From assembly GCF_051903065.1 (NCBI RefSeq), contig NZ_CP178438.1: a stretch of 64,000 nucleotides of DNA, one strand, 5' to 3'. Shown piece after piece: positions 9,001 through 12,000 of this stretch. Within the stretch, counting starts at the first letter, position 1. Every line of letters starts with the position of its first letter. This stretch comes from Escherichia coli (lineage in GTDB: Bacteria; Pseudomonadota; Gammaproteobacteria; Enterobacterales; Enterobacteriaceae). Made by a program: the position numbers.

Positions 9001-12000
9001 TTAGATTATTATTTTGCGCTTCCAGATTAACCAATGAATGCTGATTTTTTAAATCTAAACTTTCCAGATTATTATGATCAATATAAATGTTTTCCAGATT
9101 TGATTCATTTGGAAAGGTTATCGTGTTAATTTTATTAAAGCTGAGGTTGATATTAACGAGACTGGCATTGTCAGTAAAGTCAAGACAAGTTAGACAATTG
9201 TTTTCCAGATTTAACGTATTAACTGTCGAGGGGATAGGCGGTAACTCACTCAAATCAAGATATGACAAATCAAGAGATGCCATGTTCGAATTGTAAGCTT
9301 CTTTAATTCGCTCCACGGCAATTGCTCTTTCTTCACCATTATTAAGCAACTTATTACCCCATTGTTCTAGTCGTTCACAAAAATTGCTGGAGATGGTTTC
9401 TTTGTTAGGTAATGCGTTATTAAATTGATAACTGGCATTATTTTTTACACAAGCTGTATTAATATTGGTCATAATCACTCATCAATAAATATTATAGTAA
9501 GATGTCCCCGGGGGGTATGGAATAATATTAATTGAGGTGAATGACCAGAAATATCAAAAATTGCTCATTTTTACTTAAGGAGTCATACAGCAGCACTTAA
9601 ATCAAAAACCAGCCCAGAGAAGGGCTGGTCAGGAGAGGATGTTAGAACTGATAGGTAATGCCCGTAGCGACGATGTTATCGGTGCGAATATCTACGGCAC
9701 GGGTAAAGTCGCTTTCATCAATCAGGTTGATTTTATAATCAACATAGGTCGACATATTTTTGTTGAAGAAATACGTCGCACCAACGTCGATATACTCAAT
9801 CATGTCCTGGTCGCCGTAGCGGCCCAGATCTTTGCCTTTCGATTTCAGGTAAGCGAGTGATGGGCGCAAGCCGAAGTCGAATTGATATTGCGCCACCACT
9901 TCAAAACTTTGTGCTTTGTTCGAGATATAACCATCCCCATAGGTGGTCATGTTTAATGTTTCAGCGTAATTAGCTGCAAAGTAGATGTTGTTGGCATCAT
10001 ACTTTATACCTGTGGCCCACAGTTCTGCATTCTTACCGGAGGCATTGAGAGGATTAGCAGCGGCTCTTTCCTGCGCATTTGTCCGATCGGATTTGGTATA
10101 TACCGCACCGATACCAAAGCCATCATAAACATAAGTTGAGGAGATACCGAAACCGTCACCGTTGGCACGCGTGTAGTCAGCACCATAAAGATGACTGTTG
10201 TCAGTACGTTCATTTTTGCCTTGATATTGCGCGGCAAAGTTCAGCCCTTCAATTAAGCCAAAGAAATCGTAGTTGCGATAGGTTGCTACACCGGTGGTAC
10301 GGTATGTCATGAAGACATCTTTCTGACTCCAGGTATCGCCACCAAATTCTGGCAACATATCGGTCCATGAACCAATGTCATAGCCGACACCGTAGTTACG
10401 ACCATAGTCCAGAGAGCCAAATTCACTAATTTTTAAACCAGCATAGGCCAGACGGGTCTTGTTGCCGCGCGAGCCGTTGGCTTCATCGTTATAGCCTTTA
10501 AAATCATATTCCCAGTGACCAAAACCAATCATTTGATCATTGATTTGCGTTTCTCCTTTAAAGCCGAGACGGGCATAAGTTTTATCACCATCGTCACGCT
10601 TATCATCAGTAAAATAACGTAGAGCGGTAACCTTGCCATAAAGGTCGAGTTTATTACCATCCTTGTTATAGACTTCGGCAGCGTGTGCTACGTTCGCAGC
10701 TAACAAACCAGTTACAACCACCGCAACTATTTTTAATTTCATTTAACAGAATCCTTTTAATTATCGTTAAACGTATTTTTTAAACGAATTTTAAACGGCG
10801 TCATTTATAAATGACATACTGTTTTTAAAATAGAATGGTGATTAAAAACAATGAGAAAAATAGATGAAATAATATTATTTATCGATATGTGATCGAAGTC
10901 GAAATGAGATATAAGGTGAATTACTGGTATTTGAAATTTATTTTTTTAATATTGTCGGAATTTATCTGATTAACTGCCGGGCCGTAGACCCGGCAGTTAT
11001 TTTAACCACGACGTGTCGCCAGCCAGCAGAGCAGGGAACCGCCGCAGACCATTAGCGCGCCTTGCCAGAATGAGAACGACAGCGGGGCGCTGAGCAGCAT
11101 GGCTGCAAGCGCTGAGGAAAGTACGGGCGTAAAATACGAACCTACCGCCATAATGGTGACGTTGCCATGCAATATACCGACATTCCATGCAGCATAAGCA
11201 AATCCTAAGGTAAATGCCGCAGAGATGAGTTTAATTATGACGGGCGTGCTAAATACCATTTCTGGTTGTGGCGTGAGAAAATAGTAAACCCACAGACTTG
11301 CTCCCGTTAGCAGGACAAAAACGGTAATTCCGTTAAATCCGCGGGCGTATTTATTCGTTACTGTGCAATAAGCGGCCCAGATAAACGCACCAATGAACGC
11401 CAGGAAATAACTCAATGGGCTGGTGGTGATATTATTGATGATTTCATCATAATGTAACCCATTGTCACCGCCTAACACCCAGCAGACGCCGACGAGGGCT
11501 AATAATAATCCAGGTACAATCAACCAGTTAGTTTTCTGACCATTAAACAGAATGGCAAAGAGAATTGTCAGGCTGGGCCACAGATAGTTCACCATACCCA
11601 CTTCAATCGCCTGATGACGGGTCGCCGCATACCCTAAGGAAAGCGCCAGACAGATTTCATAGCTGACGAATAACAGACTCCCGGCGAGTAAATAGCCTTT
11701 CGGGATTTTCCGAATACGCGGAAATCCAACCGTGAAGATTAACAGCAGCCCGCTTAATGAATAGATAGCAGCTGCGCCGCCGACCGGGCCGAGCCCCTCA
11801 CTGACACCGCGAATCAATCCTACCATCGTGCTCCACAGGACGATCGCTATTAGCCCTATGAGCGTTGCTTTTTGTCGTGTCATGCTCGCTGTTTTGTCTC
11901 TCTTGCCGTTAAAAATTAAGCTGAATTTTATAGCATTTTTTTAACTGGCCTGTCAGGCAGTGGTGCGTTTTTCTACCGCTATTGAGGTAGGTCAATTTGC

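Follow-up and report, generated by a model that had tools for sequence, protein, structure and literature searches.

Porins govern the permeability of the outer membrane to nutrients and beta-lactams, and phages and colicins use them as receptors; they are antigens as well. In non-typhoidal Salmonella, OmpD (ompD, STM1572), the major general porin of Salmonella enterica, encoded next to yddG, is a protective antigen. The Salmonella yddG-ompD neighbourhood was studied by Santiviago et al. [quoted passage not shown] In Escherichia coli, the counterpart of OmpD usually cited is the prophage porin NmpC, which is silent or interrupted in K-12, and the small RNA (sRNA) literature takes nmpC as the equivalent of ompD (PMC3333887). 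Regarding the yddG locus itself, Okeke et al. 2011 (PMC3079680) likened K-12 yddL to the 5' end of z2239, and yddJ to the 3' end of z2242. Here, we analysed the porin gene adjacent to yddG, and a 16-bp palindrome upstream of it, in a stretch of 64,000 nucleotides of an E. coli genome (contig NZ_CP178438.1, assembly GCF_051903065.1; hereafter the window). The results make it probable that this gene is a functional, strain-variable positional orthologue of OmpD which has been demoted in expression, and that the palindrome is incidental. The gene, its truncation in K-12 and even the name ompD are already in public records, and the finding is already known; it is an ordinary one, largely explained and of little surprise to a specialist. 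The additions made here are modest: evidence from synteny and the promoter that the gene is an OmpD orthologue, the breakpoints of the deletions, with the K-12 state derived by two of them, the frequency of each state in complete genomes, the evidence for demotion (codon bias, -35 block and sRNA sites), and the placement and evolutionary history of the palindrome.

The porin gene beside yddG

The porin is encoded on the minus strand at positions 9642-10742 of the window, where the open reading frame starts with ATG, has 366 amino acids including a 21-residue signal peptide and ends in ...GITYQF. The Pfam profile Porin_1 (PF00267) was matched over its entire length (positions 1-337 of 337; 450 bits, E 7e-135); the description of a full-length porin with a signal peptide and a C-terminal Phe, given in the first-pass annotation, was borne out. 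Among the NCBIfam models, the protein narrowly passed the OmpC subfamily cut-off (NF007841; 497.6 against 484) and fell short of both the OmpF and the PhoE equivalog cut-offs. The solved chains of OmpC (2J1N) and OmpK36 (6RD3) aligned with the whole mature porin at 427-430 bits, from query residue 22 to the C-terminus. Since the solved mature chains start at residue 22, the first 21 residues (10680-10742, minus strand) are the predicted signal peptide, with cleavage predicted after AHA; this assignment comes from the alignment and from reading of the sequence, in which the mature N-terminus is of the AE(V/I) type. The signal peptide is close to that of Salmonella OmpD (MKLKLVAVAVTSLLAAGVVNA) and unlike that of NmpC. 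The L3 motif PEFGG (LPEFGGDT), the arginines of the basic ladder, including R37 and R76, and ATYRN aligned with OmpK36 and OmpD, and the C-terminal Phe (YQF) aligned with OmpK36/OmpC.

Judged by these sequence features, the reading frame is an intact classical general porin, which shares the fold family, the L3 PEFGG and the C-terminal YQF of OmpC and OmpK36, although its locus is not that of ompC and these genomes carry it as a second gene. From the alignment of about 430 bits to OmpC/OmpK36, a trimer of 16-strand barrels with outer-membrane channel activity is predicted. As known for the family, the protein would be exported via Sec, cut after AHA and inserted by the beta-barrel assembly machinery (BAM) through the C-terminal Phe signature, forming a 16-strand trimeric barrel narrowed by loop L3 (PEFGG). 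By homology, the gene would constitute a single-gene unit with a sigma-70 promoter homologous to that of Salmonella ompD and with its own terminator; a terminator scan located an intrinsic-terminator-like hairpin with a T-run at 9607-9630 (minus strand), 12 nt past the stop codon, with a stem of 9 pairs, of which 6 are GC pairs, followed by TTTGATTT.

The exact protein is present on at least 1,000 public contigs, as "porin OmpC" (also its name in the NCBI Prokaryotic Genome Annotation Pipeline, PGAP) and as "outer membrane porin protein LC", while its UniRef name is "Outer membrane porin protein ompD". In the literature searched for the O157 gene (ECs2076, Z2239), only PMC3079680 and PMC5931665 proved useful. 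As a database clustering oddity, Roseburia LepA proteins are listed in the same 90%-identity protein cluster as the window porin.

Comparison with other enterobacteria revealed that, outside Escherichia, the nearest named relatives are a porin of Citrobacter koseri (78% identity), porins of other Citrobacter, Enterobacter and Lelliottia (72-75%) and Salmonella OmpD (72% over the full length). Proteins of the OmpD clade scored 538-692 bits against the window porin, above OmpC, and both OmpC and the prophage porins NmpC/Lc (67% identity) ranked behind these relatives. NmpC/Lc, carried by the lambdoid prophages DLP12 and PA-2, belong to the same general porin clade; they differ from the window gene in their prophage locus, which is without yddG, and in their signal peptide. 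In Salmonella, C. koseri and one Lelliottia strain, yddG (EamA family) is directly followed by the porin gene, and fdnG is divergent. Linkage of yddG and the porin was found in 27 of the 35 best loci (one genome per species), with linked loci in E. albertii, Lelliottia, Enterobacter, Citrobacter, Intestinirhabdus and S. arizonae; the lower-identity paralogues checked all lack it. In at least six genera, a same-clade porin follows yddG in this position and orientation, and about 200 bp upstream of it can be aligned across genera, including an invariant GATCACA box, the -10 and the Shine-Dalgarno block.

Because the yddG synteny is shared and the upstream ~200 bp is alignable, the comparative evidence identifies the window porin as the positional orthologue of enterobacterial OmpD; it equals Z2239 of O157 and represents the full-length form of K-12 yddL. 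The locus is the same as "O-island 62" of O157 (Z2239-Z2242) and as yddL/yddK/yddJ of K-12, with 98.6% DNA identity between Z2239 and the window gene. The positional counterpart of OmpD in E. coli would thus be the yddL locus and not only the prophage gene nmpC, which corrects a common shorthand of the literature. The gene of Salmonella differs from that of Escherichia in its downstream neighbours, which are a GFA-family gene, smvA and smvR in Salmonella and leucine-rich repeat (LRR) effector genes and narU in E. coli, and the nonsynonymous divergence (dN) between the two is 0.16, against 0.10 for other pairs of orthologues.

Some further relatives were noted. Two porins of 85-86% identity lie on short contigs without yddG and are hence uninformative on promoter evolution; one of them, the 86%-identical enterobacterial porin, is on the 1.9-kb contig JAIJJM010000616.1, binned in a metagenome-assembled genome of "Collinsella sp.", which is probably binning contamination. 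Judging by the closeness of NmpC/Lc to Salmonella OmpD, lambdoid phages may have picked up an OmpD-like gene in a host resembling Salmonella or Citrobacter.

Promoter, expression hallmarks and distribution

The transcription start of the porin was projected by homology from Salmonella. Counting back from the ompD start codon placed the Salmonella +1 at the G of TCT/GCCATTGAC, six bases after TAAAAA, and this G aligns with the first G of the E. coli palindrome, at window position 10815. The predicted 5' leader of the window gene is thus AU-rich and 73 nt long (10743-10815), with a predicted -10 TAAAAA at 10822-10827, placed by its position relative to the mapped Salmonella start, and a predicted -35 TTGTTT at 10846-10851, separated by an 18-nt spacer; all of these are on the minus strand. 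The sequence TAAAAAT is nearly invariant in 28 aligned orthologous promoters, while TTGTTT is a degenerate form of the TTGAA(C/T/A) of other genera. The Shine-Dalgarno sequence AAGGA, read from the sequence inside an AAGGATT block, is located at 10752-10756 (minus strand), and ATTA(A/T)AAGGATT is nearly invariant in all orthologues. Further upstream, at about -79 to -73 (10888-10894, minus strand; TGTGATC on the plus strand), lies the GATCACA box, which is invariant in about 28 orthologous promoters from at least six genera and is a candidate CRP half-site centred near -81.5, in keeping with the reported dependence of Salmonella ompD on cAMP-CRP. A promoter scan of the region returned nine sigma-70-like sites against 5.1 expected; one alternative, ATGTCA-18 nt-TAAAAT at 10788-10817 (minus strand; 9/12 matches), is a consensus match only, and its -35 overlaps the left arm of the palindrome.

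Alignment of the promoters showed which parts have changed in Escherichia. Across about 26 species of other genera, hardly any variation is seen in the blocks GATCACAC, TGAAACTTATTATTGAA (which holds the -35) and TAAAAAT (-10), or in GCCATTGAC, with which the leader starts. E. coli and E. albertii have kept the GATCACA box, the -10 and the Shine-Dalgarno block and, like Salmonella ompD, the window gene has an AU-rich leader; in contrast, the -35 block TGAAACTTATTATTGAA was rewritten (TTGAAC to TTGTTT), as was the leader start GCCATTGAC...CAATGG. Within the E. coli leader, CGTTTAA is also present in three direct copies (CGTTTAAAATT CGTTTAAAAAATA CGTTTAACG), at a place occupied in other genera by only one CGTTTAG/A with AATGGTT behind it.

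Codon usage and predicted sRNA pairing also set the Escherichia gene apart. The effective number of codons (ENC) was 49.7 in the window porin, with a GC content at third codon positions (GC3) of 0.45, 50.8 in O157 and 43.3 in E. albertii, compared with an ENC of 29-35 and a GC3 of 0.55-0.66 in the orthologues of Salmonella (ENC 34.5), Citrobacter, Enterobacter, Lelliottia and Intestinirhabdus; rare codons numbered 6-9 in the Escherichia gene and 0-2 in the orthologues. With assumed 5' seeds of MicC and RybB, of which that of MicC recovered the published Salmonella site at +67 to +78, the MicC duplex reached -10.4 kcal/mol in E. coli (78% of shuffles as good) against -19.6 kcal/mol in Salmonella (0.3%), and the RybB duplex -17.9 kcal/mol (16%) against -23.7 kcal/mol (3%), and both target sites thus appear degraded in the Escherichia gene. 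Strong codon bias and MicC/RybB sites in the early coding sequence, which are hallmarks of a major porin, are therefore missing from the Escherichia gene, these hallmarks being traits of Salmonella regulation and not of the protein family. Taken together, these sequence traits lead us to infer that, in Escherichia, what had been a major porin came down to a low or conditional level of expression, and the gene most likely encodes a "reserve" porin expressed at a low level or conditionally. In this respect it resembles the quiescent porins OmpN of E. coli and OmpS1/OmpS2 of Salmonella, which are not orthologous to it: an intact gene under selection, signs of low expression and an AT-rich upstream region are shared, and a likeness in behaviour is suggested by the codon bias.

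The K-12 alignment agreed with the earlier statement that this strain keeps only a short porin-like fragment. The yddL gene of MG1655 (b1472, annotated with 96 amino acids; ATG at 1,546,028) matches only window positions 10459-10742, and so does the yddL pseudogene of MC1061 ("porin, missing C-terminus"). This part of the gene (minus strand), comprising the first ~95 codons, survives as the yddL pseudogene in K-12 and most strains of phylogroups A and B1, as observed in blastn comparisons of the K-12 and O111:H8 loci and in the PGAP label "missing C-terminus"; in K-12 it is preceded by the unchanged promoter, palindrome included. Pairwise blastn against the window revealed that K-12 and O111:H8 lack 7961-8595 and 8922-10458, the latter a deletion of 1,537 bp that takes the 3' 817 bp of the porin, while strain E01 has lost 8695-9810 and CFT073 has lost 6761-10920. 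In E. albertii, the type strain carries an intact gene (93% identity) and one genome has an IS1 inside it. The porin has been deleted or interrupted independently in most E. coli lineages, and at least three different deletions, besides the IS1 insertion in E. albertii, were distinguished. The "insertion of yddK" suggested for the K-12 state (PMC3079680) was rejected, as two deletions of a window-like arrangement explain it; K-12 yddK appears, from its alignment, to be a fusion that arose when a deletion (window 7961-8595, overlap of 20 bp) joined LRR repeats.

Of the complete E. coli genomes, 5,426 in number, 1,100 (~20%) have at least 80% of window 9400-11000 and 4,270 have the promoter region; in the others, such as CFT073, LF82 and UM146, only about 80 bp are left beside yddG. 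All nine full-length copies inspected were annotated as intact coding sequences, with no frameshift or stop found, and the gene is intact in all O157:H7 genomes sampled. Between divergent alleles, compared among six intact ones from E. coli, the differences amounted to 11-20 synonymous and 2-5 nonsynonymous changes (e.g., 19 against 2), with dN/dS ratios of 0.03-0.08 for the informative pairs and a synonymous divergence (dS) of up to 0.09. Such ratios indicate that the intact alleles are under strong purifying selection and argue that the protein is used. The earlier suggestion of an extra functional porin is hence reasonable with regard to the intact gene and its selection, while the functional role is a predicted one.

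In the Escherichia lineage, the features that mark the gene as a major porin in other genera have thus been lost, namely its strong codon bias, the pairing sites for MicC and RybB and the conserved -35 block; the gene was then deleted or interrupted independently in most E. coli lineages, K-12 yddL being one such remnant, and ~20% of complete genomes, the window strain and O157:H7 included, keep it under strong purifying selection. An ENC of ~50 in Escherichia against ~30 elsewhere, together with repeated independent loss, would make this a compact case of a major envelope protein that was demoted and then discarded. In about one fifth of complete E. coli genomes, the intact gene stands for a third or fourth porin, which is ignored by models of permeability and sRNA regulation based on K-12.

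The palindrome upstream of the porin

The perfect palindrome of 16 bp (GTCATTTATAAATGAC) that had been reported about 60 bp upstream of the gene was found at 10800-10815, symmetrical and hence without strand, with arms of exactly 8+8, at 58-73 nt upstream of the ATG and at the projected positions +1 to +16. It occurs once in the 64-kb window, with no recurrence elsewhere in it within 3 mismatches, and the dyad overlaps the core promoter under either promoter assignment. The window contains three perfect 16-bp palindromes against 1.3 expected, and at least one was present in 72% of Markov shuffles; for the 259-bp, 27%-GC spacer between yddG and the porin alone, the probability of at least one is ~0.027. 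The palindrome is therefore mildly unusual locally and unremarkable after allowing for the scan of the whole window. The other two are CCATTTCATGAAATGG and ATCCGCGATCGCGGAT, at 29428-29443 and 58823-58838, and the porin spacer holds a second palindrome, of 14 bp and A/T only (AAATAATATTATTT, 10867-10880). An origin as a mobile-element scar or a member of a repeat family was rejected, as the 36-mer around the palindrome is found exactly once per genome.

Comparison among strains and species showed that the element varies. At the aligned position, Salmonella has GCCATTGACAAAC-GC, and a dyad is found there in no other genus (~26 species). E. albertii carries GTCATTTGCAAATGGC, which differs at three positions and in which a central AT to GC change leaves a perfect core of 12 bp, and O157:H7 carries GTCATTTATAAATGGC (A15G), in 281 genomes; O111:H8 has G1A, and M15 and GZM7 have T5C. 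The 36-mer around the perfect palindrome was found exactly in 2,562 genomes and with a mismatch in 72 more, while the other ~1,350 genomes with the region have other changes, such as G1A or T5C, all of them truncated-gene strains among those sampled. In the intact-gene strains sampled, the palindrome is perfect in five of six, the exception being O157. Position 15 is a G in O157 and E. albertii and at the aligned site of other genera, and the perfect 16-mer is hence probably derived, through a G-to-A change that is probably recent. Of the 26 variable columns of the 259-bp spacer, three fall inside the 16 bp, a density of 0.19 against 0.095 elsewhere (Fisher P 0.21); this density is not lower in the palindrome, and there is thus no sign of extra constraint. 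On this comparative evidence, an incidental origin is most likely, in which turnover of A/T-rich sequence in the remodelled promoter would have given rise to the palindrome and a single G-to-A change would have made it perfect. The proposal of the first-pass annotation that it is a site for a dimeric regulator was not supported, as it is absent from ~26 orthologous promoters otherwise well conserved at that place, is imperfect in O157 and E. albertii, and shows neither reduced variation nor recurrence.

Several observations weigh against the reading of a functional, demoted OmpD orthologue with an incidental palindrome. Salmonella OmpD is closer to the NmpC-type prophage porins of E. coli (79-80% identity) than to the window porin (72%), which is also why nmpC is treated as the OmpD counterpart in the sRNA literature; dS between E. 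coli and Salmonella is saturated (>2), against 0.59 between Salmonella and Citrobacter, though the promoter can still be aligned; and the GC content of the porin, 44.6%, is lower than that of its flanks. Since orthology at the sequence level is unclean in these respects, a foreign allele could long ago have replaced the gene in situ. In addition, a search of the supplements of PMC10469882, PMC4782308 and PMC10301672 by gene name and coordinate prefix gave no transcription start site for yddL/Z2239, the E. coli start being the one projected by homology; the literature searched did not report expression of the intact E. coli gene; and the sRNA comparison used assumed seeds, though that of MicC recovered the published site. 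Regarding the palindrome, the local probability of ~0.03, its perfection in every sampled intact allele but that of O157, and the symmetric AT-to-GC change at the centre in E. albertii allow for a function, although roughly a third of random double changes there would keep the dyad symmetry as well. Some of these observations would also fit a porin that is not ancestral and forms part of a horizontally acquired AT-rich island ("O-island 62", read as an island by Okeke et al. 2011, PMC3079680), landed by yddG together with the LRR effector genes. The saturated dS, the nearness of Salmonella OmpD to NmpC, the long basal branch of the Escherichia gene within the OmpD/NmpC clade in a neighbour-joining tree without support values, the GC content of 44.6% against 50% for yddG and the orthologues, with 32-35% in the adjoining LRR genes, and the absence of the whole segment from B2 strains are all in its favour. 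We consider acquisition very unlikely, however, in view of the same-clade porin in the same place and orientation after yddG in at least six genera, the homologous ~200 bp of promoter and leader with its invariant GATCACA box, -10 and Shine-Dalgarno blocks, the OmpD-like signal peptide and the sharing of the locus with E. albertii; moreover, the GC content of the porin is far above that of the LRR genes, and simple deletions from a window-like arrangement explain the K-12, E01 and B2 states. It is more improbable still that the intact-looking gene is effectively dead, that is, silent, heading towards a K-12-like pseudogene and without contribution to the outer membrane. The loss of codon bias, the degraded -35 block, the four or more independent inactivation events and the lack of an intact copy in ~80% of complete genomes would agree with this, but dN/dS values of 0.03-0.08 at dS up to 0.09 are incompatible with neutral decay, the nine annotated full-length copies sampled are free of frameshifts and stops, and the Shine-Dalgarno sequence, -10 and terminator are intact.

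Readings that give the palindrome a function start from the same promoter remodelling. It could be the operator of a dimeric repressor that blocks RNA polymerase and keeps the porin silent until a signal arrives; a perfect 8+8 dyad with a local probability of ~0.03, covering either the projected +1 or the -35 plus spacer of the alternative promoter match (ATGTCA-18-TAAAAT), as is typical of repressor sites, is suggestive, as are its perfection in five of the six intact-gene strains sampled, the symmetric change of two central bases (AT to GC) in E. albertii that leaves a 12-bp perfect core, and a gene that otherwise looks tightly down-regulated. We regard this as unlikely, since the dyad is absent from ~26 orthologous promoters that are highly conserved at that spot, and O157 (281 genomes) has A15G and yet keeps the gene under selection; the G is probably ancestral, so that the perfect site would be young, and three of the 26 variable columns of the spacer lie within its 16 bp, with no further copy in the window within 3 mismatches. 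To our knowledge, the palindrome fits no consensus of CRP, FNR, Fur, LexA, TyrR, NsrR, Zur, ArcA, PhoB or KdgR, with mismatches in half-site or spacing. No regulator of the yddG-porin spacer, and no binding to it, was reported in the literature searched, and the papers on genomic systematic evolution of ligands by exponential enrichment (SELEX) that name yddG or yddL place RNA-polymerase peaks inside yddK or yddJ, not at the porin promoter. The palindrome could otherwise act as RNA, its projection to +1 to +16 making it a 5'-terminal stem-loop (GUCAUU-UAUA-AAUGAC) that slows 5'-end-dependent decay and stands in for SL1, the longer 5' stem in the leader of Salmonella ompD. Leaders of Salmonella and Citrobacter open with a stem at +2 to +31 (-10.4 kcal/mol), for which pairing reaches 84% over 23 species while slid controls give 21-47%, and its long-range partner (CAAUGG) is lost in E. 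coli; the hairpin is kept in O157, where A15G gives a U-G wobble, and in E. albertii, where the changes fall in the loop. Such a role is nevertheless quite unlikely: at -3.3 kcal/mol, with six pairs of which most are A-U, the hairpin is very weak and lies at a start projected rather than mapped, compensatory changes are absent from SL1, no credible consensus fold emerged from RNAalifold for 23 orthologous leaders (-0.21 kcal/mol), and G1A and T5C break the stem, though in lineages whose gene is already truncated. An Rfam scan of 9400-11100 returned no family and a single chance miRNA match (E 0.33). A broader form of these ideas, in which the rewritten promoter and leader start made OmpD a tightly silenced reserve porin, with the palindrome as a lineage-specific control element (operator or 5' RNA hairpin), seems to us similarly doubtful. 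If it were true, gene-keeping strains (O157:H7 and the other full-length lineages sampled) would switch the porin on under a specific host or stress signal, and such induction would affect antibiotic entry, sensitivity to phages and colicins, and antigenicity.

Neighbouring genes

Genomic context analysis revealed the order narU, espR1, two EspR2' LRR fragments, the porin, yddG (11002-11883) and the divergent fdnGHI. The AT-rich LRR effector genes lie downstream of the porin on the minus strand (6895-9478), with espR1 at 6895-8172 and the EspR2' fragments at 8214-8882 and 8969-9478, and were recognized by their GC content, LRR matches in Pfam and the PGAP annotation of identical or near-identical loci; the names EspR1/EspR2' follow PMC5931665. 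Together with the porin, they make up the variable narU-yddG segment that contains "O-island 62" of O157:H7. These genes correspond to the type III secretion effector gene espR1 and two EspR2' fragments with an IpaH-like N-terminus. Strain ECNB21-M121 has a porin region 100% identical to that of the window and an IS903B between narU and espR1; this element is absent from the window, with which K-12 is colinear over 4001-7960, so that the window stems from a distinct, though related, genome.

Just past the yddG stop codon, at 10969-10995 (minus strand), lies a GC-rich hairpin, AACTGCCGGGTCTACGGCCCGGCAGTT, without a T-run, which was not called by the terminator scan. It is kept in K-12 and O157 and has a diverged form in E. 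albertii, and judging from its sequence and position it may be a 3' stabiliser or terminator element of yddG. On the other side of yddG, fdnG (12115-15162, plus strand) appears as two open reading frames of 195 and 803 amino acids, split by an in-frame TGA selenocysteine codon, as expected in formate dehydrogenase-N.

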